Source: a virus
Lineage: Duplodnaviria > Heunggongvirae > Uroviricota > Caudoviricetes
Virus record (IMG/VR): IMGVR_UViG_2778261381_000005
Length of the DNA: 61,778 bases
Reading direction: 5' to 3' (one strand)
Below are positions 4,101 to 56,464 of this stretch, one piece after another. The stretch's first letter is position 1, and each line of letters opens with the position of its first letter. Made by a program: the position numbers and the translations under genes. The notes under the pieces were generated by a model. That model made no database searches, was not told the DNA's origin, and was given only the letters and a program-made list of their open reading frames with translations.

Positions 4101-4117
4101 GAAAACAATTTGTTTAA
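4101..4117 (+). promoter_or_regulatory. conserved palindrome AAAACAAnnTGTTT (motif 1) about 15 nt upstream of start codon
   Basis: gaaaacaatttgtttaa; same motif recurs before at least 12 other genes. Confidence 0.45.
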
Positions 4118-4131
4118 AAGGATAAGAAAAC

Positions 4132-4557
4132 ATGGCAGCTATTAAGAAACTCTACGATGCCGCAAACGTGGCTCTGGATGTTATTGATGATGAAGTAGCA
4201 AAAGGCTTTCCTGAACCTGATTGGGCGCATCAGCTACGAAACGCTATCGCAGAAATGACCCCACCAGATCCAACCCCCGACGAGACAGACTGGCAGCGAT
4301 TCATCCGTATGTACGCTCAGGAAATAGGTCCAACGCCAACGGCAGAGCAGGCAATGCTGCTGAAATACTTCAAAGAGGCGGGAGAGGATTTACCAATTGA
4401 TGACTCAGCATATTGGTTCCACTGCGCATGGCGTAAGTATGACGTGATATTCACACAAGGCATGGGAAGCAAAGATATGGTTGTGTGGCATCTACTCCAT
4501 ATAGACACAGCCGTTGACAGAGTTATTGAACAGTTTTTCCCTAAACAAGAAGATTGA
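4132..4557 (+). CDS. hypothetical protein
   Basis: ORF behind motif 1 and RBS. Confidence 0.5.
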   Translation: MAAIKKLYDAANVALDVIDDEVAKGFPEPDWAHQLRNAIAEMTPPDPTPDETDWQRFIRMYAQEIGPTPTAEQAMLLKYFKEAGEDLPIDDSAYWFHCAWRKYDVIFTQGMGSKDMVVWHLLHIDTAVDRVIEQFFPKQED

Positions 4558-4612
4558 TCGCCTATTCATAACTAACAAAATAAGTAAACACTAACCACAA
4601 AAGGAAAAACAC

Positions 4613-8291: not shown

Positions 8292-8545
8292 CCCTCCAGA
8301 TCGTATATTGGCGTAGATAGAATCTACGCCCCCTCAAAATAGCTCTCATAGCGTTCTACAGTGATCCTGTCTTATTTTTAGTCATACAGACAAGCAAAGT
8401 TGCGCCACGATAAATAGGTATATACTTACTTATAAATTTTGTATATTAAGGCGCTCGTTTCATTCCTAACATACCGTTATGCATAGTTGTTTACCTCCTC
8501 ATTGCTCTTAGAATTTGTATCAAAATAACCACAAAGGAAAAATAC

Positions 8546-15536: not shown

Positions 15537-15558
15537 AAGATAACAACTTGTTTAAACG
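15537..15558 (+). promoter_or_regulatory. motif 1 palindrome upstream of nrdB
   Basis: agataacaacttgtttaaacg followed by leader aaaaaggaaaaacacATG. Confidence 0.45.
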
Positions 15559-17767: not shown

Positions 17768-17844
17768 ATCTGTCTGGTCTTGTTCTCTCAATGAATGTAA
17801 ACTCACACGATGAATAAGTAATTACTTATCTTTGTGAGGTTTTT

Positions 17845-24866: not shown

Positions 24867-25014
24867 TAAGTAAGTGTTTACCTATCATTTTAAATCATGT
24901 ATCTTATCAGCGTCAGGATGACAATGTGTCGGTAAGACACAGTTCCAGGATGGAACGAGAAAGGCGGCTGGCGATCGCCAGCCGCAACTCTTTCTGACAC
25001 TGGATGGAGTCCAC

Positions 25015-25760: not shown

Positions 25761-25780
25761 AGAAAACAATTTGTTTTGAC
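25761..25780 (+). promoter_or_regulatory. motif 1 palindrome
   Basis: agaaaacaatttgttttgac followed by aaaggaaaacacATG. Confidence 0.45.
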
Positions 25781-26384: not shown

Positions 26385-26523
26385 TGACAAGGGCCAAATG
26401 GCCCTTGTGTTTCGTTGACCGAAATAGAGAGTTTGCACCTTTACGTTTAGCTTGCTCCCCTTTTATGCCACATCACAATAAAGCCAATAAGAAAACAACT
26501 TGTTTAAGCATTAGGAAAAACAC

Positions 26524-28684: not shown

Positions 28685-31600
28685 CTATATCTGCCCACCT
28701 ACTCCTTTGAACTTTTCAATAAACGTGACGATTTTCTGGAAAACGGTCTGTTTTTTCGTTTTATATTGCGGGTTTAACGGACTAAGTTTTGGTAATGTCT
28801 CGTTTAATTCTGTGCCATTTTCGGTGGCGTATTCGCGTTTTAAAGACGTGCGAATATAGCGTTTCGCCGCCTCTTCATTGAGATTTTCTTCTTTTATCAA
28901 TGCTTCTGCTTCACGTTGCTGTTCGCGTTGAGCAAACGTAAAGAATGCCTCAATGATACTGGCTTTGTCTGGTAAATCATCCAGGTTCGTTTGCTGAATA
29001 AAATCGACCACCAGGCCCTCTTTCGCCCGGTTCCCCAGGCTTGAACGAATTAAGCGTTTGACCTCTTCGATCATTTCGCCCTTGCCTTTATTTTGTCTGT
29101 TGTGTTCGAAAATCAGTCCAAGGATATAATCCAGGTTTATTTCCTGAGACTTCAGCAAATCGACCTCAAAAACTACGTCATCCCAGTCAGTGGTTGATTT
29201 CTCTTTTTTCTCAGCTTCTTTCTCACGGCGCTGCCAGTCGCGAATATCGTTATAGGCAGAACGATAATCCTGAATCTTGCGTTCAGCAGGGAGACGAATT
29301 GTTTGCAATTCAGCGAACTTTTCATCATCCACATAATGTTCTGCTTTGAATTTTTCTACCGCAACAGGATCGCTAAGATCGATTTGTTGCAGGGCTTTCA
29401 GCGTGGCAAATTCATCATAGTTTTGCAGGATGTTCTCGGCACGCAGGTATTCACCAAACAGTTTTACGAAGTCTTTCTTCTCTTTTTCACTTTCAATACT
29501 GGCAGGGTCAGGGAACCGTTGTTCCAGTTCTGAAACTACTGCCATAAAGCCGCGTTTAGCTTCACCAGTGGCAGCATCTGTAAAGCCTTCCATATACTCA
29601 GCATAACTCTTTTCTAACACCACATTTTTAGTATTTTTATCACCAAACAGCGTTATGGCATCAATGGTTGAGCGTTCCAGATCCCGAAAAGTGACGATGT
29701 TACCGAAGGTTTTAGTAGCGTCATAAATGCGGTTGGTACGGGAGAATGCCTGCATCAGGCCGTGAAAACGCAAGTTTTTATCGACGAATAGCGTGTTCAA
29801 TGTTGGAGCGTCGAAGCCGGTTAAAAACATCCCAACGACAATTAACAGATCGATATCCTGATTTTTAACCCGTTGGGCTAAATCACGATAGTAGTTCTGA
29901 AAACCGTTACTGTCGGTGCTGAAGTTAGTTTTAAAATAGCTGTTATACTCACGAATTGCAGCGTCAAGAAACTCTTTAGCACTGCTGTCCATTGCGCTGG
30001 TATCAAAAGTTTCATCGGAAATTTCACCAATGGCATTTTGTTCTTCATTGGCGGCAAAGGAGAAGATTGTTGCAACACGCAGCGGTTTATAGGTAGCCGA
30101 TTTATTAGCTGCTTCCTCTTGTAACCGTTTAAACGTCGCGTAATAGGCTTTCGCGGCATCCACGCTACTCACTGCCAGCATGGCATTAAAGCCTTTGGAA
30201 CCTGGGAAAGTACGGTGGGTCTTCTGGCGGAAGTTATTCAGAATATATTGCGTAATTTCCTGTATACGCATGGGATGAAGAAATGCCTGCTGATTTTCAG
30301 CCGCACTCAGTTTTTTCTCGTCGGTTTCTGTCTCTAAAGATTTAAACTGTGGCCGCACATCGTTGTAGTCCACCTTGAATTTGAGCACTTTTTCATCACG
30401 AATCGCATCGGTAATTACATACGAATGCAATTCACGACCAAATACGCTGGCGGTCGTTTCTGAGCCTAAGGCGTTTTCCGGGAAAATAGGTGTGCCGGTA
30501 AAACCAAACTGATAATAGCGTTTGAATTTCTTCTTCAGGTTTTTCTGCGCTTCTCCAAACTGGCTGCGGTGACATTCATCAAATATAAACACCACTTGCT
30601 GATTGTATACAGGCAGGTCGCTTTCTGCTTTCATCAGGTTATTAAGTTTCTGAATAGTGGTGACGATAATTTTGTTATCGTCCTTATCCAGATTGCGTTT
30701 AAGACCTGCGGTATTTTCCGAGCCGTTGACGCTGTCTGGCGAAAAACGCTTATATTCATTCATGGTCTGGTAATCGAGGTCTTTCCTGTCGACCACGAAG
30801 AAGACTTTATCAATAAAGTCCAGCTCTGTTGCCAGACGCGCGGCTTTAAAGCTGGTGAGGGTTTTACCTGAACCGGTAGTGTGCCAGATATACCCACCGC
30901 TTTCCGGTTTTGACCAGTTCTTCGCTGTAAAGGAACTCTTAATTTTCCACAGAATGCGCTCAGTGGCGGCAATCTGGTACGGTCGCATCACCAGTAGCGT
31001 TTGGCTAACATCGAATACGCTGTAGTTCACTAAGACATTAAGCAGGGTATGTTTCTGGAAAAAGGTGGCGGTAAAGTCTTTGAGGTCTTTAATCAGCGTG
31101 TTGTCTGATTTCGCCCAATTCATGGTGAAGTCAAAACTGTTTTTATCGCGCTTTGTCGTGTTGGCAAAGTAACGGGTATCGGTGCCGTTGGAAATGACAA
31201 ACAGTTGCAGATACTTAAACAGAGAATTTTCGCTGTTAAAACTCTCTTTGCTGTAACGATGTATCTGGTTAAAGGCCTCACGAATCGCCACGCCGCGCTT
31301 TTTCAGTTCGATTTGTACCAGCGGTAAGCCATTAACCAGGATCGTGACGTCATAACGGTTAGCATGAGAACCCGTCTGTTCAAACTGCTGGATAATCTGC
31401 ACCTTGTTGCGCATGAGATTCTTTTTATCTATCAAATAGATGTTCTCAAGACGCTCGTCATCAAAAATAAAGTCGCAAATATAGTCGATATGGATTTTAC
31501 GGGTCTTATCCAGGATGCCATCGCTCGGGTTATCCAGATACTGCTCCGTGAAACGCCGCCATTCGCTGTCATTAAACACCACACCATTGAGGTTCTGAAG

Positions 31601-39208: not shown

Positions 39209-39293
39209 ATATAGACACAATCCCTTCTGATTTACACAGTACCTAAAACAATTTGTTTTCTGCCTTTTGTTGATGGAGATAATAAACCACATA

Positions 39294-39312
39294 AGAAAAC
39301 AACTTGTTTTGG
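39294..39312 (+). promoter_or_regulatory. motif 1 palindrome (second copy at 39243-39262)
   Basis: aagaaaacaacttgttttgg; first motif 1 after the host-type block. Confidence 0.45.
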
Positions 39313-39313
39313 A

Positions 39314-39622
39314 GTGGTTGAAATGTTGAACATTACCCAAGCCTACCAGGTGGCATTGATCAGCTCATCTCATACATCAGAGGAAGATGCTCGCCGATTC
39401 ATGATCGCAAGCAATGAGCTGGATTGGGTTTCGCAAATTGACGGCGGTTGTATTGTCCACGCCGGGTTACAGGATGATGTCTGGAAAGACGACTTGCGTC
39501 GATATGGTATATCCGAAGGCGCGATTGCTAACATTCAGAAAGTACTTGATGTAGGCTTTGACTCTGTACATTTTGATTGTGGTGCGCCGGTCGTTGAAGG
39601 GCTTGAGTGCTGGAACTGGTAA
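39314..39622 (+). CDS. hypothetical protein
   Basis: RBS ggag then ATG directly after motif 1. Confidence 0.5.
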   Translation: MVEMLNITQAYQVALISSSHTSEEDARRFMIASNELDWVSQIDGGCIVHAGLQDDVWKDDLRRYGISEGAIANIQKVLDVGFDSVHFDCGAPVVEGLECWNW

Positions 39623-39749
39623 ATCTGCAAACAGATTCAAACCGTTGATAATGGCGGTCACAATTTGATTCTTTTCTATAAGAATCCGTTGATCGCCACT
39701 ACTCCCCTTCCATACCCGCAATCACATCCTTAAATATCAATAAGTTATA

Positions 39750-40560
39750 GTTGTTTATACAATCAAGAAAACAACTGAATAACAGATCAACGAAACATCA
39801 ACGCTTTCATCCGATTTGGTCTAAAAAATTGACGTTTTCACACATCACTGCTTATACCCGTAATTCTACGCAGCAGACAGCGCCACAGCGTCCAATTTTC
39901 ACCACAGACGACCCAACACACTACCAACAAAAACACACGCTCAAAATCGTTCCCGTTGCGTTACACAACCATATAAACAACTTATTTTCAGGCATAACAA
40001 AACAACTAAATAACACACATGCCATTCCCCAAAACAACCAACCTCTTTATGGCAGGCTACCGAAAAGACCCACCTCTTCTCCCCAGGCTACCGGACAACC
40101 AACCTAACTTTCACAGGCAATCCGAAAACATTCATACGCGCGATACCCACGACACGCCATTACCCAAACAGCGAAGAAACACCTGAACCGCTGAAACCCC
40201 AACGAAGCCTGTAACCGCAAGGTTTCTCTCAATCCCAAAAGACACGAAACATAACAATCACGGGAAACGCCATTACCCAATACACGAATAACTACAAAAG
40301 CCTTTCACACACTCCAGACAAACAACTCAAACACAATAACGAAAGCAATCGCCCACCTGCCATTACTCCATACACGGAGAAGAACAATCACCAAAACGAC
40401 GAGAACACCCCATAGAAGAACCACCGCAAAACGAACGAAACCATTTACACCGACAGAGAGAACAACACGCCCAATTCACCAACAGAAATAGTCGCCGTAT
40501 AGAACATTCTGGAAGGAGTGAGCATTAACGCCTATAGAGAGGTTGAGACAGATAAAACAC
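39750..40560. repeat. non-coding region with strong C+A over G+T strand skew and dispersed repeats
   Basis: Repeats ACGCCATTACCCAA at 40154, 40269, 40355; CAGGCTACCG at 40040-40110; ORF-track ORFs here are low-complexity. Confidence 0.6.
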
Positions 40561-40679
40561 AACATGTATAGCGAAGAAGCCAGGTATGTATAAGTGGGGA
40601 GGGAAGGAGGGGTGTCGCCTCCTTTTTCGTATTTATTCAACTCCTGATTTTATCCCCCGTAACACCCCTACGGTCAGCC

Positions 40680-40860
40680 TTCGGTCCATACAGGGAAAAG
40701 GTTGCATCCCGCTACAGAAACGGCTGGGTTGCCTTCGGGGAACGGCTGGAGGTTTTCAGGGAAACGGTCGAGTTGCCTGTGTGGGTTTCGGGAAAAGGCT
40801 CGATGCCGGTTCAGGAACGGCGGCGTACCGGTATAGCGTGAGGGAGAGTTGCGGCTACCC
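40680..40860. repeat. degenerate tandem repeats with GGAAACGG core (about 6 copies, 22-30 bp period)
   Basis: ggaaaaggttgc, agaaacggctgg, ggaacggctgg, ggaaacggtcgag, ggaaaaggctcg, gaacggcggc. Confidence 0.55.
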
Positions 40861-41154
40861 ACCTGTAATGTGCGGGAAGAAGAGAGGCGCTCACGTGCAG
40901 GCGAACTTACTTACCGCTGGATTCCCTCTGAATGCCCAGCTACAGCGTAATTGTGCCAGACAGCCAACGGGTCACAATCGATTTCAGTAGGTTTTCGGGG
41001 AGATGATTATTCTGCCCACCAGCCACCTTCGGCCACTAAATCAGAATAATGTAAAAAGTGTTCTCGGTACTGAACCTGAAAACTCACTGCCAAAACCACA
41101 TTCACCGGAATAAAATCCTTTTTCGCCTGTGCGTTATTGCGATAATAACACCAT

Positions 41155-41176
41155 CAAGAAAACATGTTGTTTAAGG
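41155..41176 (+). promoter_or_regulatory. motif 1 palindrome with extended upstream box CGATAATnACACCAnCAAGAAAAC
   Basis: caagaaaacatgttgtttaagg; extended box shared with 43265 and 43755 copies. Confidence 0.45.
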
Positions 41177-41184
41177 ATTGCTTT

Positions 41185-41514
41185 ATGTTTGCACATATCG
41201 ACATCAACCAAATCAAGAAATTGACTCAAAAAGAGTTTGACCAGTTCTATGAGCTGGAAGGTTGGTCTTCCACTCTGATCAATTCGCGGTGGGTGCTTGA
41301 GCTGATGACTCGTGATGATGCACCTGCTTTGATGATTTGCGACATGGGTGAAGATGCTGACTTTATGGATATGAGCGAATTTTGTGTGGACACATACAAC
41401 CGCAGCCAGAAGTACTACTTCACATGCGATAGCGAAAATGACGTGATTTCTAAGGTCTATCTTCACCTCGTCCAGCATTGGGACGTTCAGGAGTTTCTTG
41501 AGGTATTCGCGTAA
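41185..41514 (+). CDS. hypothetical protein
   Basis: RBS aagga; ORF-track ATG at 41164 lies inside motif 1. Confidence 0.5.
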   Translation: MFAHIDINQIKKLTQKEFDQFYELEGWSSTLINSRWVLELMTRDDAPALMICDMGEDADFMDMSEFCVDTYNRSQKYYFTCDSENDVISKVYLHLVQHWDVQEFLEVFA

Positions 41515-41582
41515 TCCCAACCAAAGCCAGCATTGCTGGCTTAATTTCTCTATAGCCGCAGGGAAGAACCTGCATATCGATC

Positions 41583-41978
41583 ATGCACCTGATCATTATG
41601 CTTTGTAGCCGTTTTCTTACTGGTATTATTTACGCCATTGAGAAAACAAGTTGTTTACGGAGTTGTGATGAAAAAATCATTGGTTCTTGGTCTGGACAAA
41701 GACCAGAAGAGAAAGAGAAGCCTGCGCTGGTTGCTCAATTAACTTTGCTGGACATCGTTGCCAATGGAACCTCTATTCGTCTGTTCCGTGAAACAGCGGT
41801 GTCTTTCGATAAAAACACCTTTACTCGTTATGTAATGAATGTTCGTCGCCAGCGTGGAAAAGGCTGGGTGGCATTTCAAAGAATGTGGCCGGAACATCAG
41901 CTCGAACTGGCCTTGATGGAAGTTAACCGCGTGGCCCAGCAAGAGATTCAGAGAGCATCAGTGATGGCAATAGCCTGA
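41583..41978 (+). CDS. hypothetical protein; start uncertain, possible frameshifted gene
   Basis: Motif 1 and RBS point to ATG 41668 in +1 frame, which stops after 24 codons; see findings. Confidence 0.3.
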   Translation: MHLIIMLCSRFLTGIIYAIEKTSCLRSCDEKIIGSWSGQRPEEKEKPALVAQLTLLDIVANGTSIRLFRETAVSFDKNTFTRYVMNVRRQRGKGWVAFQRMWPEHQLELALMEVNRVAQQEIQRASVMAIA

Positions 41979-42012
41979 TAATGTGCAAGTGGTAATTAGT
42001 CGACAGTACGAC

Positions 42013-42040
42013 AGCCCCGCCATCCTTACGGGGCTTTTTT
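42013..42040 (+). terminator. rho-independent terminator
   Basis: GCCCCGC catcctta CGGGGC followed by TTTTTT. Confidence 0.65.
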
Positions 42041-42104
42041 GTATTGTAAGTACATACTTACGATCATAGAATATAAAAATAACCAATACACTACGGAGAG
42101 TGAA

Positions 42105-42500
42105 ATGACCATTAAACGCGAAAAACTGACAGTTGATGTTTACTATGCCTCTGAAACCGCCGAAGGTAAGAATGTGGCAAAAATCACCGTTGTTACGTAC
42201 AACACCGAAACTGGCGCCGAAGTACAGGCCAGTACGATCGTGCGTAAAGGTGATGACTCCGACGGCGAGTACGCGACTCAATACCAGTCCATTCTCGATG
42301 CAACTGACCCGCTGCTGCTGAAAATCGAGAGCTACTTCCGCCAGGTTGATGAAGAGGTGTTTGAAACCATGATGAATATGGTTAACACCGTATTCGCCTC
42401 CAACCTGAATACCAACACTACCTGGATTGGTCAGTACGGCCTGCGCATTACCTCTGGCATTCCTGCCGACACCTTAATCCCTGAAAGCGTATTCGCTTAA
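42105..42500 (+). CDS. hypothetical protein
   Basis: RBS ggagag before ATG at 42105. Confidence 0.5.
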   Translation: MTIKREKLTVDVYYASETAEGKNVAKITVVTYNTETGAEVQASTIVRKGDDSDGEYATQYQSILDATDPLLLKIESYFRQVDEEVFETMMNMVNTVFASNLNTNTTWIGQYGLRITSGIPADTLIPESVFA

Positions 42501-42511
42501 TCCTCTTTAAA

Positions 42512-42537
42512 TGGCGCGTAAACCGCGCCATTTTATT
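42512..42537 (+). terminator. rho-independent terminator
   Basis: ATGGCGCG taaac CGCGCCAT followed by TTTATT. Confidence 0.55.
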
Positions 42538-42617
42538 AAGCCCGATAACAATTTGTTTTCTGCCTTATCTGATTTGTGAAAATGATTTCACTGAAGCAAC
42601 TTAATAAGGAAACCATC

Positions 42618-42992
42618 ATGGGACTTGATATCTATATCGAGACACAGCCTAAAAACGATCTGAATAACGAGGCATCCAGAAAGCAGGTTGCTTACTTCCG
42701 TAAGTTCAATGCGCTCGTTGGGTGGATGGAGCGCAACGTAGGTGAAGTCGAAAATTGTGAGCTTTTAGAATTAACGATGAATGACATTTGTTTTCTGAAG
42801 GCTCATTTGATGCACATAAACGAAAGTAATTGCGAAGAGTACTTGCCTACCCGGGAAGGTTTTTTCTTCGGCAGTCAGGAGTACGATGAAGGTTACTGGC
42901 ATGATGTGGGGGAGTTGAAAGAGCTTGTGGAAGATCTGATTAAGAACCACGACTTTCACAATAACAGACTGACCTTCTGCGCCTGGTGGTAA
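42618..42992 (+). CDS. hypothetical protein
   Basis: RBS aagga before ATG at 42618; motif 1 at 42544-42562. Confidence 0.5.
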   Translation: MGLDIYIETQPKNDLNNEASRKQVAYFRKFNALVGWMERNVGEVENCELLELTMNDICFLKAHLMHINESNCEEYLPTREGFFFGSQEYDEGYWHDVGELKELVEDLIKNHDFHNNRLTFCAWW

Positions 42993-43143
42993 ATATGGGC
43001 GATTTCAAGAAACGCCTGAAGGAAAGAGCCGAGATGGTCAGAAAGCAAAACGCCTCTTCTGTCATCAGATACGCAAGGCAGTTTAGTCGCAACAACAAAT
43101 CAGTTGAGGAAAAGATCCTTAGCGTAATCGGGCGATAATTATT

Positions 43144-43167
43144 AAGGCCACCAGCATTGGTGGTCTT
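43144..43167 (+). terminator. terminator hairpin, copy 1 of duplicated element
   Basis: AAGGCCACCA gcat TGGTGGTCTT; near-identical copy at 43613-43640. Confidence 0.5.
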
Positions 43168-43321
43168 AAATGACTTTTAATAACCGAAGGTTAGTTTGAA
43201 ACCTGGCTATCAACTTCCAGAACCTTTCTTGTGTATTCAGCCTGTATTAACTTCTTTTATGCCTTATCTACACTGCGATAATTACACCAACAAGAAAACA
43301 ACATGTTTACGCAGTGAGGAT

Positions 43322-43609
43322 ATGCTCATGACTGATTTCACCATTACCCCTAAAGCACAAAATGTATTTCTTGAATCATGGCTGGACTTGCCGGAAACAG
43401 AACAGCAAGAAATGGATCATGTGGATTATGACGAGCAGGTAAGCACGCGATTCTTCCACTTTGAGGGATGCGTTTACGACATTGCCGACTTCATGCGAGA
43501 TGACCGCTTCCCTGAATGGCACGCAAGCTATCCACTAAACGCCTTTGCCATGCTGATGATCCGTGTGGATGATTCAGGGGATACCATCGACATCGGTCTG
43601 CTCCACTAA
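43322..43609 (+). CDS. hypothetical acidic protein
   Basis: RBS gagga; motif 1 at 43290-43310. Confidence 0.5.
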   Translation: MLMTDFTITPKAQNVFLESWLDLPETEQQEMDHVDYDEQVSTRFFHFEGCVYDIADFMRDDRFPEWHASYPLNAFAMLMIRVDDSGDTIDIGLLH

Positions 43610-43612
43610 AGA

Positions 43613-43640
43613 TTAAGGCCACCAATGCTGGTGGCCTTAA
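43613..43640 (+). terminator. terminator hairpin, copy 2
   Basis: TTAAGGCCACCA atgc TGGTGGCCTTAA. Confidence 0.5.
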
Positions 43641-43813
43641 ATGACCATCCTGTTTCCCGCAGGCTAAAAACACCAACCTCTTACCTCCAGGCAACCGACA
43701 AACCCACCTGTTCCCGTCCGGCTACCGCAACTTTCCACTTTGACGCCTTATTCGTACAACGATAATTAACACCAACAAGAAAACAATTTGTTATTTACGA
43801 TAAGGAATTAATC

Positions 43814-44296
43814 ATGAATTTTATCGCTACTGTAAACGCACCCGCACATGGCAATATCGCTGTAACGTTCTCTGACATTGAAAAACGAGTACTTGGTGCA
43901 TGGCGCGACAATGAGACGGTAGAACTGTCAGCACAAGAAAAATGCATTATTGCACGCGACATCATTGGCAATCGTCGTTACTCGCGGGTATTTGAGAAAG
44001 CATATGTGGTAAATTCTGGATTCGGAACGTTCGTCTTTCCGGTGCGCTCCGGGCGATTCTGCCAGTCCAAGCTGATTGAGTTCGCTACGCAGATTTCTGT
44101 CTGGATTAAAACTCAATCGTCGTTCAAATTTTCCGACGATGAAGCAGTATCGCAGGGGATGCGGATCGCCAACAATGCGATTAAATGCAAAAACATTACG
44201 TATACCGCTGGCGTTGATACATGGAAACTGTTTTGCGCTAACTTTATGCTGAATGTATACGCAAGCAACCGCATCCACATCCTTGATGGCGTGTAA
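43814..44296 (+). CDS. hypothetical protein
   Basis: RBS aagga; motif 1 at 43785-43806. Confidence 0.55.
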   Translation: MNFIATVNAPAHGNIAVTFSDIEKRVLGAWRDNETVELSAQEKCIIARDIIGNRRYSRVFEKAYVVNSGFGTFVFPVRSGRFCQSKLIEFATQISVWIKTQSSFKFSDDEAVSQGMRIANNAIKCKNITYTAGVDTWKLFCANFMLNVYASNRIHILDGV

Positions 44297-46662: not shown

Positions 46663-47187
46663 TCAAAAAGGCAAAATTCGTTCAACCCAATCGAACAAAA
46701 CAACTATTTTTCTACCGTTCTCGACACGTAGTGTAACCTGACAAGCATCTGCGCCTGCTGACACCCCCTCAATTTCACGGCCATCCGCCATGTACACCCT
46801 TATAGATTTGTTTGCTTTGTAGGCTTGGTTGCAAATTGCAAAAAAATCGCGGCGTGATGGCCGATTATCGACATAATCAGGGTGAACTGTTAGTCGACCT
46901 TTGAAATCGTGAGCGATACTGTCAACCACACCTGATTCAATTGTACTAATGCGTTCAAGTGGGAGCCTTATACGATTTTCTTTGTCAAAAGGGGCTGGGC
47001 AAAGGTCAACTTTGTTACGAGATGGCATGAGGCCATAAACGTACATGCAAAACGCCTGGCCATCTTCGAGAGTGACCCTTACAGGAATTTGTTCTCTGCG
47101 CCAGAACATCAGTAGTTTTTCAACGTTAGTGTAATCTCGCGGCCAGAGTTCAGCTTGGATACCGTAGGTAATATCTTTGGTTGTCAT
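46663..47187 (-). CDS. hypothetical protein
   Basis: ATGA overlap with upstream lipoprotein stop; start trimmed from ORF-track 47265. Confidence 0.45.
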   Translation of the reverse strand: MTTKDITYGIQAELWPRDYTNVEKLLMFWRREQIPVRVTLEDGQAFCMYVYGLMPSRNKVDLCPAPFDKENRIRLPLERISTIESGVVDSIAHDFKGRLTVHPDYVDNRPSRRDFFAICNQAYKANKSIRVYMADGREIEGVSAGADACQVTLRVENGRKIVVLFDWVERILPF

Positions 47188-47682: not shown

Positions 47683-47961
47683 TTATTTTAATCTGCTTAA
47701 TAGCGTTTCGAGATCTTCCTTTGTCATATTAGAGTTCTCATAGATACGCATGATTTTCTCACGAGTCTTAGCGGAAGCCCCGACAGAAGATATAACCTTG
47801 TCAAAGTCGGCCATTGTCAATTGTTCCAGAATGGTATTTATGACTTCAGCCTTAGACATTTTGATATTTTTTTCTTTTAGTTTCACTTGAAACTTTCCAA
47901 GTTTGTCATTGGCCTTATCAGACAATGCTACCTGACAGTAAGTTGTTTTCTTTTCACTCAT
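47683..47961 (-). CDS. hypothetical protein
   Basis: ORF downstream of helicase gene. Confidence 0.45.
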   Translation of the reverse strand: MSEKKTTYCQVALSDKANDKLGKFQVKLKEKNIKMSKAEVINTILEQLTMADFDKVISSVGASAKTREKIMRIYENSNMTKEDLETLLSRLK

Positions 47962-49565: not shown

Positions 49566-49591
49566 ATAATAAGTAAGTGATTACTTAGTGG
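49566..49591. promoter_or_regulatory. motif 2 palindrome in divergent region
   Basis: ataataagtaagtgattacttagtgg. Confidence 0.4.
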
Positions 49592-52512: not shown

Positions 52513-52779
52513 ATGACGTTAACCGACAAACAAAAGGACATCATCAAAACGCTCAATCTCGGTTATGAGCGAGGTCATCTACTTGACCTGGACGAATTGC
52601 TTGAAGTTTTGCCGTACAAGACAACCAAGCAAAGTATCCAGTTCTCAATTCGCGCTCTGATAAAAAAGGGGCTGGTGGAGAAAGGGCATACGCGCCAACG
52701 CAGTGACAATCGCTATCACCGCCGGACTCTTGGGTTAACCACTTTAGGTCGAGCCAAAGCGAAGTTACTGGTGATGTAA
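52513..52779 (+). CDS. small DNA-binding protein, winged-helix-like
   Basis: 88 aa, basic C-terminus. Confidence 0.4.
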   Translation: MTLTDKQKDIIKTLNLGYERGHLLDLDELLEVLPYKTTKQSIQFSIRALIKKGLVEKGHTRQRSDNRYHRRTLGLTTLGRAKAKLLVM

Positions 52780-52803
52780 TCGGTCTGGGAGCTTATTTAA
52801 AGA

Positions 52804-52861
52804 CCTGCATCTGTATATATAAATAATAAGTAACTTATTAAATATATACGGAAGCAGGCTT
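52804..52861. repeat. about 60-bp inverted repeat element with TATAAATA core (copy 2 of 2), upstream of packaging genes
   Basis: cctgcatctgtatatataaataataagtaacttattaaatatatacggaagcaggct. Confidence 0.6.
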
Positions 52862-52974
52862 CGTAAGACATGCCAGACCTAATTAAACACCCCAGAAAAC
52901 AAGTTGGTTAGCAGATGCAGTAAACAAGTTGTTTTAGAGCGCATGGACGCGCTCTGTGTGTTTTAGAGGGATCT

Positions 52975-54889: not shown

Positions 54890-56464
54890 ATGGAATTGAA
54901 CGACAAACAAATTAAGGATCTGGTGGCGCGACGCCACCCGGAATACGAAAAGAAAAAAGAACATTGGGACTTCCTCGCCAGCACTTACGCTGGCGGGCGT
55001 GGTTGGTTTACAGACAATATCTTTCGTTACTTTAAAGAGGGAGATCAGGAGTTTAAGGAGCGAGTTGAACGTGCTTATCGCTTCAACCACACTCGTGAGG
55101 TGGTAAACCTCATCAACAAATATCTCTTTAAAGAAGACATTCATAGAAATATCGAAGAGGCACCAGAGCAGATCCGCAATTTCTGGAAACGTGCGACTCG
55201 CCAGAATGCCTCTATTGACTCATTTATGGCCGCTATTGATTTGCAGTCGTCTATTTACGGTCGCATATGGGTTGTTGTCGATAGCACGATGAGTGGTGAT
55301 GTTGAGTCAGTAGCTGACGAGAAAAAGAAAGATGCTCGCGCCTACGCCTACTGGATTTCACCTCAGCAAATGCTGGATGTGGCATGGGACGACGACGGGA
55401 ATATGTTGTGGGCGTTAATTGTGGAAGTCGCTCGTGATGACGCAGATCCTTTTACTTCTACAGGTCAGGAATACCAACGTTATCGTCTGTGGACACAAAA
55501 CGAGTGGTATCTGTTCCGTGAGGAAGTGAAGAAGGGCGCTGGTGGAGCAGGTCGCCGTCAGGCAAAAGTTATTTTAGAGGATAGCGGTGAGCATAATCTC
55601 GGCGTAGTTCCTGTGTTTCCTGTTGATTGTATTGGAGAAAGTGAATCACCGTATTTCAGCCCATCGTTGATCGATGATATCGCTTATCTTGATCGTGCGG
55701 TTGCAAACTATCTGTCAAACCTTGATGCCATTATTCAGGATCAGACATTTAGCCAGTTGGCTATACCGGTACAGTCGCTTTTACCTGGTGATGAAAACCA
55801 CACTAAAGTGCTTGAAATGGGCACAAAGCGAGTCTTCACCTACGATTCTGAAGGTGGAAACCAGCCGTTTTATCTGTCACCAGACCCGAAACAAGCTCAG
55901 ATGATCATCACTACGATTAAGACGGTGATTAACGAAATCTACCATTCAGTTGGTGTAGCTGGTGAGCGAACGAAGCAGGACAACGCACAGGGAATCGATA
56001 ATTCATCTGGTGCCGCAAAAATGTATGACTTCCAGCGTGTAAATAGCTTGCTTGTCACAAAAGCAGAGCGTCTGGAAAGGGCTGAACGCCAAATCATGCT
56101 ACTGGTTGCGAAATGGATGGGGGTAGATCTGGACGAAGACCACTCTTTAATTGCATATCCAGAAAGTTTCGATATTCGTGGCCTTACTGATGAATTTTCT
56201 GTTGCCGAGAAACTGTCATTACTTCAGGCACCGGACTCTGTACGTCGTCACCAGATGGAAATGCTTATTGAGAAGATTTTCCCGAACATTACTGAGGCGA
56301 TGAAAAAGGAATTTGATAAAGATCTCTTGAATTTTCCTCCAAAAAATGATCTAAATACCCTTGAAAATAAGTCAGTACTTACTTATGATCGTGGTGCAGC
56401 CCAAGAAAGCGGGCAAGATCAACCCCGAGGGAATGGGGACTCATCTACTCAAGAGAACGAGTGA
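54890..56464 (+). CDS. portal protein
   Basis: 524 aa between terL and scaffold gene. Confidence 0.7.
   Translation: MELNDKQIKDLVARRHPEYEKKKEHWDFLASTYAGGRGWFTDNIFRYFKEGDQEFKERVERAYRFNHTREVVNLINKYLFKEDIHRNIEEAPEQIRNFWKRATRQNASIDSFMAAIDLQSSIYGRIWVVVDSTMSGDVESVADEKKKDARAYAYWISPQQMLDVAWDDDGNMLWALIVEVARDDADPFTSTGQEYQRYRLWTQNEWYLFREEVKKGAGGAGRRQAKVILEDSGEHNLGVVPVFPVDCIGESESPYFSPSLIDDIAYLDRAVANYLSNLDAIIQDQTFSQLAIPVQSLLPGDENHTKVLEMGTKRVFTYDSEGGNQPFYLSPDPKQAQMIITTIKTVINEIYHSVGVAGERTKQDNAQGIDNSSGAAKMYDFQRVNSLLVTKAERLERAERQIMLLVAKWMGVDLDEDHSLIAYPESFDIRGLTDEFSVAEKLSLLQAPDSVRRHQMEMLIEKIFPNITEAMKKEFDKDLLNFPPKNDLNTLENKSVLTYDRGAAQESGQDQPRGNGDSSTQENE

Follow-up and report, generated by a model that had tools for sequence, protein, structure and literature searches.

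The window analysed here, a 61,778-nucleotide stretch recorded in IMG/VR as IMGVR_UViG_2778261381_000005 (Caudoviricetes), carries many copies of a 15-base palindrome, AAAACAAnTTGTTTT, which we call motif 1 and which adjoins the promoters of about 14 window genes. Judged from the annotation of matching records, the window is an SSU5-like siphovirus phage-plasmid of E. coli, with T4-like genes for replication, recombination and nucleotide metabolism, a RepB-type replicon and a structural module. Its 39.0-44.5 kb segment aligns over the full length with Escherichia phage Cyrano (plasmid pLF82 of E. coli LF82) at 98.2% identity and with two ~111-kb plasmids at 99.8-99.9%, and it matches more than 700 plasmids of ~110 kb, mostly non-mobilizable, from Klebsiella, Escherichia, Enterobacter, Yersinia and Salmonella. 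A type I restriction-modification (RM) block at 28.7-34.7 kb occupies the place of the Ead/Ea22 genes in Cyrano. An earlier note on this DNA, made from the letters alone, had argued that the motif flanks a host-type block and so ties two phage arms to one genome. Sites do lie on both sides of the RM block, and since the matching records describe one SSU5-like phage-plasmid in which this block is swapped for Ead/Ea22, the two arms are parts of one replicon; by this comparison the entire window is a single replicon.

In alignments of 51 oriented sites from four genomes and of 353 site contexts from all fetched loci, the true form of motif 1 is a 7-1-7 palindrome, AAAACAA-n-TTGTTTT (AAAACAANTTGTTTT), with the oriented consensus (A)AGAAAACAAnTTGTTTA. 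Allowing up to two mismatches, AAAACAANTTGTTTT occurs at 15 window sites against ~0.26 in shuffled sequence. The exact pattern AAAACAANNTGTTT gives 11 matches on both strands against 0.07 expected from shuffles, and a relaxed 13-mer with one mismatch gives 29 against 3.0 expected. The 15-mers start at 4102, 15540, 25763, 26492, 39245, 39296, 41159, 41643, 42545, 43295, 43780, 52896 and 52921, so that all 13 copies reported in the earlier note are there, within ~10 nt of where it had placed them; further matches are a weak site at 39974 and a chance-level match at 46697-46711 within a gene. As that note had also proposed, a ribosome-binding site follows: from the end of motif 1 to a start codon preceded by a Shine-Dalgarno (SD) sequence there are 10-63 nt.

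The sites fall into two classes. In class D, motif 1 lies forward relative to the gene, in the order ...TGnGATAAT-aACACCAaCAAG-AAAACAAnTTGTTTA-(SD)-ATG; the -10-like hexamer starts 18-19 nt 5' of the 15-mer, which leaves a gap of 12 nt between hexamer and site, and the start codon follows 10-34 nt past the 15-mer. Class U is the reverse complement, often placed directly after the terminator hairpin of the preceding gene, with the pattern cCT(T/A)AAACAAnTTGTTTTCTGCCTTtT-N-TGnGA(T/A)AAT (the profile reads TGtGAtAAT). Here the hexamer starts exactly 18 nt past the 15-mer, despite spacers that differ across promoters and genomes. If transcription is assumed to start 7 nt past the hexamer, class D would span about +6 to +20 (centre ~+13) and class U about -45 to -31 (centre ~-38). 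The two classes are 51 bp apart in every pair found, at 39252/39303 in the window, at 88325/88376 and 93668/93719 in SSU5, and in pfekpn2511-2. A TGn extension of the -10 hexamer is present in a subset of sites, as TGCGATAAT (41138, 43274), TGTGAAAAT (42575) and TGGTATTAT (41621); the -35 regions are poor, and a conserved GCCTT(A/T)T box stands at about -29 to -22. The sites and their surroundings are as follows.

4102..4116, + strand: class D copy AAGAAAACAATTTGTTTA, 15 nt 5' of the ATG of a DUF7238 gene (4132..4557; Pfam)
15540..15554, + strand: class D copy ATAACAACTTGTTTA in the nrdA-nrdB spacer, 5' of nrdB (15585)
25763..25777, + strand: perfect palindrome, 5' of a TciA/TerB-like gene (25801)
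26492..26506, + strand: class D copy, 5' of a gene for 189 amino acids (26524)
39245..39259, - strand: inverted class U copy, ending 18 nt ahead of GATAAT at 39278-39283; predicted centre ~-38
39278..39283, + strand: -10-like GATAAT between the U and D sites, in the putative promoter of a DUF5983 gene (39323..39622)
39296..39310, + strand: class D copy, perfect palindrome, 51 bp from the U site and 12 nt 5' of the ATG at 39323
39974..39988, unstranded: degenerate copy TAAACAACTTATTTT in a G-poor non-coding stretch, after the conserved gctcccgttgcgtta
41138..41173, + strand: candidate promoter-operator cassette, with TGCGATAAT (extended -10), AACACCATCAAG, class D copy AAAACATGTTGTTTA (41159-41173), SD and ATG
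41621..41657, + strand: candidate promoter-operator cassette, with TGGTATTAT (extended -10) and then a class D copy at 41643-41657; the open reading frame (ORF) at 41668 is frameshifted in the window
42545..42583, - strand: putative U-only promoter, with an inverted class U copy (42545-42559), 18 nt and TGTGAAAAT (-10 hexamer 42578-42583); gene from 42618
43274..43309, + strand: candidate promoter-operator cassette, with TGCGATAAT and then a class D copy at 43295-43309; gene from 43328
43760..43794, + strand: candidate promoter-operator cassette, with a -35-like TTGACG, CGATAAT and a class D copy at 43780-43794; gene at 43814
52896..52935, unstranded: pair of copies 25 bp apart, forward at 52896-52910 and inverted at 52921-52935, in the leader of the terminase (late) operon (terS 52975)

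For the gene behind the 41138..41173 cassette, the start annotated in a near-identical record corresponds to window position 41185; an in-frame ATG first occurs at 41164. The extended box CGATAATnACACCAnCAAGAAAAC is indeed found in three copies, at 41140, 43276 and 43760, the third with a 1-nt insertion. The leader AAAGGAAAAACACATG, said to follow the motif often, had been overstated: AAGGAAAAACACATG is found in its exact form at 4601 and 15573 alone, near variants stand at 2997, 25792 and ~26510, and this leader is the phage's usual ribosome-binding context, present with or without motif 1 and not part of it.

Motif 1 is retained across the family, in Salmonella, Klebsiella and E. coli relatives. 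Counted with up to two mismatches, there are 19 sites in Cyrano, 21 in SSU5, 19 in Klebsiella pJN2-26, 18 in PhiR41_1 and 14 in 50 kb of K. pneumoniae pfekpn2511-2, whose proteins are only 30-80% identical to those of Cyrano. The sites recur at orthologous positions in these five genomes, namely at nrdB, tciA, a DUF4942 methylase gene, parA, the helicase gene, cobT, terS and the small-gene cassettes, and the flanking sequence has diverged in all of them. Specifically, the nrdB site is kept in Cyrano, SSU5 and pJN2-26; the 41138..41173 cassette is a conserved block in SSU5 and pJN2-26, where better copies of the 39974 site also stand at the same place; and the pair in the terminase leader is shared with Cyrano and SSU5. 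The sites prefer intergenic DNA: although 86.8% of Cyrano is coding, 15 of its 19 sites lie wholly between genes (p=1.4e-10), and the others fall in dubious or over-extended ORFs, apart from one chance match inside the FljA-like gene. Scanning IMG/VR for the 18-mer AAGAAAACAANTTGTTTA returned at least 120 loci. Among the matches listed, 103 are SSU5-like and 17 are others with a single copy, and multi-copy motif 1 is confined to the SSU5-like family. Recognition by a host transcription factor is disfavoured by this confinement among the matches listed, an argument from distribution; to our knowledge, no E. coli operator consensus matches.

In the Pectobacterium plasmid Drgb1, a distant syntenic SSU5-like relative, motif 1 is wholly absent. 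Its promoters retain GAAATAAT-N9-AAGAAAA followed by unrelated A/T-rich sequence (for example L023 680-796, 6990-7102 and 8250-8365). Because Drgb1 keeps this leader and lacks the palindrome, the comparison suggests that a conserved leader element came first and that the palindrome was added to it later. Two other features of Drgb1 may be recorded: AATAAGAAAA is present 7 times (L023-L025), and the plasmid encodes its own Hfq homologue directly 5' of the replicative helicase gene (L023 48354-48575).

The variation among sites bears on whether motif 1 acts as DNA or as RNA. Across the 353 site contexts there are 77 distinct 15-mers; at their six inner pairs we counted 59 one-sided changes and 0 compensatory double changes, and the central base is unconstrained. 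As judged from these comparisons, one-sided variants together with a free centre are the signature of a symmetric protein on duplex DNA. Folded as RNA, the palindrome forms a hairpin of only -0.6 kcal/mol, the leaders fold no better than shuffles (z-scores near 0) and an Rfam search with motif 1 gave no match; taken with the missing covariation, these results led us to reject an RNA hairpin or riboregulator. An intrinsic terminator was likewise rejected, given the A/T-only stem and the location 5' of genes. Moreover, the class U copies lie outside the regulated transcript and are yet locked to the -10 hexamer, which supports the duplex-DNA reading.

Published transcriptome data for the Cyrano lysogen speak to the state of these promoters. 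Apart from the parA operon, genes behind motif 1 do not rise above background: they range over ~5-25, the median being 9.8 (Misson et al. 2023, PMC9928086, S-table), with values of 7.5 for CYRAN_101, 12.8 for CYRAN_105, 6.7 for CYRAN_110 and 7.1 for terS (PMC9928086). The DNA-type signature, together with these background-level transcripts, leads us to prefer a repressor operator at sigma-70 extended -10 promoters.

We thus regard motif 1, at somewhat better than even confidence, as the DNA operator of a dimeric repressor that controls a regulon of about 20 promoters. In this model the core AAACAAnTTGTTT, or the full oriented form AAGAAAACAAnTTGTTTA, would be recognised as double-stranded DNA by a symmetric repressor that the phage-plasmid, or less probably the host, encodes. 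The promoters would be of the extended -10 type (TGnGATAAT) with a poor -35 and served by the host sigma-70 RNA polymerase. A protein bound at a class D site would block polymerase binding or escape, and one bound at the inverted class U copy would occlude the -35 region; where both are present, their distance of 51 bp, about five helical turns, would permit cooperative binding or looping across the promoter. The ~14 window sites, 18-21 per genome, would form one regulon with tciA, parA, the helicase gene, cobT, nrdB, the terminase operon and small accessory genes among its members, kept off in the prophage-plasmid state and released upon infection or induction. Within this model we infer the positions of the transcription starts, repression over activation, and the existence and identity of the binder. 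Of the earlier proposal of a promoter or operator, the operator half fits the evidence, since the sites are intergenic, close to genes, conserved, fixed to the -10 and followed by genes that are silent in the lysogen; the promoter half does not, as the motif flanks a promoter of sigma-70 extended -10 type. The early timing that the note had given the regulon is conjectural, and the members would include the terminase operon, a late one, as well as small accessory genes. The wider interpretation, a cis-regulatory element for the regulon of a phage regulator, is partly supported.

Several observations weigh against this model. The -10 hexamers were assigned by eye, and for several class D sites (helicase, nrdB) no hexamer at the canonical distance makes a convincing -10. 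A generic sigma-70 scan of 39.0-44.5 kb that required a -35 found fewer promoter-like sites than in shuffles and none at the cassettes; several of the promoters carry TGn extended -10 hexamers, however, and a scan demanding a -35 therefore misses them. The flanks conserved in both classes are asymmetric (promoter-proximal AAG, distal A), which a purely symmetric protein-DNA model does not predict, and class D always lies in the predicted 5' leader beside the SD sequence, as is expected of an RNA operator too. The parA operon has a site and is yet expressed in the lysogen, at 50-90 (PMC9928086). Finally, the phage-encoded binding protein that the earlier note had suggested looking for did not emerge: candidates were compared across genomes with and without motif 1, and no cognate DNA-binding protein was identified among them.

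Three of the proteins considered are encoded in the window.

46666..47187, - strand: full-length FljA-family (Flag1_repress) protein, with two tandem Hfq/Sm-like domains in the predicted structural model
47683..47961, - strand: homologue of CYRAN_117, 92 amino acids, a ribbon-helix-helix candidate by eye only; lysogen value 114 in Cyrano
52513..52779, + strand: homologue of CYRAN_123, 88 amino acids, winged-helix-like candidate directly 5' of the terS sites, with weak LexA_DNA_bind similarity only

CYRAN_45, an XRE helix-turn-helix protein encoded beside the integrase gene, is expressed in the Cyrano lysogen. It is an unlikely binder, being absent from SSU5, which keeps 21 sites, and having in its own divergent control region GGTAAGTGCTTACC-type repeats that resemble a second palindrome, motif 2, described below. 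The small winged-helix protein CYRAN_37 is absent from Drgb1, where its phyletic pattern fits; it is also judged unlikely, as the functional phage PhiR41_1 has lost it and keeps 18 sites, and its lysogen expression is at background. In CYRAN_123 and CYRAN_113 the putative recognition helices are almost unchanged in the motif-less Drgb1, a weak argument against both, and in CYRAN_117 the predicted DNA-facing strand residues vary among genomes with an identical motif. The phyletic patterns of CYRAN_62 (Cra-like) and of the FljA-like protein are compatible with motif 1. A separate observation concerns CYRAN_43 (OV696614.1 40268-40822, outside the window), a 184-amino-acid protein of unassigned function encoded beside the integrase gene: in the lysogen no other gene of the phage-plasmid comes near its expression (~7000, where the median is 10), and it is absent from SSU5, pJN2-26 and PhiR41_1.

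The FljA-like protein is the centre of the main rival explanation, which we consider unlikely: class D would be an RNA operator, AAGAAAACAAnUUGUUUA in the mRNA 5' leader just 5' of the SD sequence, through which a tandem Hfq/Sm-like binder represses translation and destabilises about 20 phage mRNAs. Salmonella FljA reportedly binds the fliC mRNA leader and blocks its translation, and phage T4 RegA represses T4 early mRNAs translationally. Like these systems, the phage-plasmid would have a dyad or A/U-rich element placed, given the predicted starts, between transcription start and SD sequence, and, as with RegA, a single site common to many early mRNAs; it also encodes an FljA-family protein. 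The window gene is full-length for Flag1_repress (Pfam E=1e-80) and belongs to the core of the family: 835 plasmid records have it, among them those of non-flagellated Klebsiella, where fliC repression cannot be its job. Class D is sense-oriented, has conserved asymmetric flanks and stands 10-34 nt 5' of start codons. In the verified fliC leader of Salmonella/Citrobacter (...AACAUCAAGUUGUAAUUGAUAAGGA...), 10 of 14 core positions, CAAGUUGU included, agree with motif 1, and the FljA-like protein of the motif-less Drgb1 has just 26% identity and is without the RRDFF segment that is invariant elsewhere. In the lysogen the FljA-like gene is at ~2x background and rises strongly under stress (PMC9928086 table). 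Against this, class U is inverted, upstream of the -35 and outside the transcript, yet equally conserved and fixed to the -10, and an exact dyad whose centre is free and whose halves do not change in compensation is what a dimer bound to duplex DNA typically shows, rather than a single-stranded RNA site. The motif is identical in pfekpn2511-2 though the FljA homologue there is only 34% identical. The likeness to fliC is marginal (p ~0.03-0.05 by our own estimate) and absent from E. coli fliC. The regulated mRNAs are at background in the lysogen, so that RNA decay must be invoked as well. Still more doubtful is the extension in which the FljA-like protein is a global translational repressor of the phage-plasmid regulon, with Salmonella FljA and its fliC target a domesticated offshoot.

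Returning to the operator at extended -10 promoters, the same geometry could be read with the opposite sign, motif 1 being an activator or promoter-specificity element through which a phage-encoded positive factor, needed at poor -35s, leaves the genes silent in the lysogen by its absence. The poor -35 regions, the conserved GCCTT(A/T)T box, the class U centre at ~-38, near a class II activator position, and the silence itself would all fit. We nevertheless hold this to be improbable: most sites are class D with a centre at ~+13, where activators normally do not work; at least two positions relative to the -10 are used, a flexible placement characteristic of repressor operators; and a TGn extended -10 can offset a weak -35. 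A T4 MotA-type middle promoter does not fit, as the MotA box is (a/t)3TGCTTtA at -30 with 11-13 bp to the -10, and the box here is (T)GCCTT(A/T)T with ~10 bp to GATAAT; no search aimed at MotA or AsiA homologues was made. Alternatively, the repeat could be kept by descent or recombination, as a duplicated promoter cassette that spread along with small accessory genes and whose chief role is to offer homology for cassette exchange. Between 39 and 44 kb, terminator-promoter-gene cassettes follow one another and their promoter blocks are near-identical, relatives differ in the gene content of this region, and nearly identical 28-nt hairpins, TTAAGGCCACCAGCATTGGTGG(T/C)CTTAA, close adjacent small-gene cassettes at 43142-43169 and 43613-43640; paired hairpins and a triplicated promoter box suggest duplication or shuffling of cassettes in this accessory region. 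As an account of motif 1, however, this seems very improbable, for conservation is far higher in the 13-15 nt core than elsewhere in the cassette, the motif also stands at non-cassette promoters with unrelated flanks (nrdB, parA, helicase, cobT, terS), and it survives in pfekpn2511-2, with its proteins of 30-80% identity.

By analogy, motif 1 as the operator of a dimeric repressor is a familiar device in kind, a multi-copy operator regulon as in P1 or RK2. The phage-plasmid P1 has more than 15 operators for its C1 repressor dispersed over the genome. There, as here, one short operator is found at many separate promoters of a ~100-kb phage-plasmid, and dispersed operons are thereby joined in a single regulon, silent while the prophage is a plasmid, but the P1 operator is an asymmetric 17-mer, ATTGCTCTAATAAATTT, and motif 1 a 7-1-7 palindrome. 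No C1 homologue was seen in the phage-plasmid, though no search aimed at one was made. The IncP plasmid RK2 uses global operators for KorB and KorA. The KorB site is a 13-bp 6-1-6 palindrome in about a dozen copies (TTTAGCnGCTAAA, compared with the motif-1 core AAACAAnTTGTTT), some of them just upstream of or over the -35 (~-39), and it serves global co-regulation of plasmid operons. It differs in sequence, most motif-1 copies are downstream of the -10, and no evidence links the phage-plasmid's two ParB-like proteins to motif 1. The lac-type operator has its primary centre at ~+11 to +14 and a second, upstream copy that faces roughly the same side of the helix; in motif 1 it is the -35 itself that the upstream copy overlaps. 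From the FljA-fliC and RegA operators motif 1 differs by its inverted copies outside transcripts and its strict DNA symmetry, with similarity to the fliC leader at 10 of 14 positions.

Motif 2, TAAGTAAGTnnTTACTTA, with the form TA(A/G)GTAAGTACTTAC(C/T)TA (also given as TA(A/G)GTAAGTnnTTAC(C/T)TA), has 8 window matches with up to two mismatches against 0.23 expected.

2955-2972, 8415-8432, 17811-17828, 24867-24884, 42046-42061, 49570-49587, 52820-52844 and 56368-56385: motif 2

Cyrano, SSU5 and pJN2-26 each have 15-21 copies; 12 of the 15 in Cyrano lie between genes (p=8e-9), and in Drgb1 motif 2 is absent, as motif 1 is. It adjoins -35-like and -10-like hexamers (TTGAAA / TAT(C/T)AT-like) and lies 5' of sbcD, thyX, uvsW/parB, terS and structural operons, a second set of putative promoters that serves replication, nucleotide metabolism and structure. 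The core of motif 2, GTAA-N4-TTAC, is met again where CYRAN_45, the putative prophage repressor, has its control region, and motif 2 may be the operator of that repressor. With motif 1 and motif 2, the genome seems to be run by two parallel operator systems.

Some further features of the surrounding DNA were noticed. At 41668-41742 the homologue of CYRAN_106 (103 amino acids in Cyrano) ends after 24 codons through a frameshift in an A-rich run, and the remaining ORF runs on in another frame (41583..41978), so that either a pseudogene or a sequencing error is at hand. The stretch 39640-40500 (860 nt; G 12.5%, C 31%, A 38%) is without a credible ORF, the ORFs annotated there in relatives look spurious, and SSU5 retains part of the stretch; a non-coding RNA or a Rho-loading (rut-like) region could be encoded or located here. 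Directly after the motif-1 pair in the terminase leader, and 10 nt 5' of the SD sequence of terS, a GC-rich hairpin, AGAGCGCATGGACGCGCTCT, is followed by the T-run GTGTGTTTT (52936-52965). It resembles a leader terminator, which would imply antitermination control of the late genes. Also 5' of terS, at 52797-52852, lies a large A/T-rich inverted repeat, CCTGCATCTGTATATATAAATAATAAGTAACTTATTAAATATATACGGAAGCAGG, with a similar copy 3' of the parA operon in Cyrano (~31160-31215), SSU5 and pJN2-26; a role as centromere (parS), pac site or origin-like site may be considered for it.

In the accessible literature the gene regulation of SSU5-like phage-plasmids is essentially undescribed and no description of motif 1 was found; within the literature that could be searched, the motif, its two-position architecture and its family-wide regulon appear to be undescribed. 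Phage-plasmids of the SSU5 type, which carry resistance genes such as CTX-M-15, are often found in E. coli, Klebsiella, Salmonella Typhi (pHCM2) and Yersinia pestis (pMT1). A family-wide operator would define a regulon of about 20 promoters and offer a handle on its regulator. It could also be put to use in reporters for the state of lysogeny or lysis and in predicting co-expressed accessory cassettes, possibly anti-defence genes among them.

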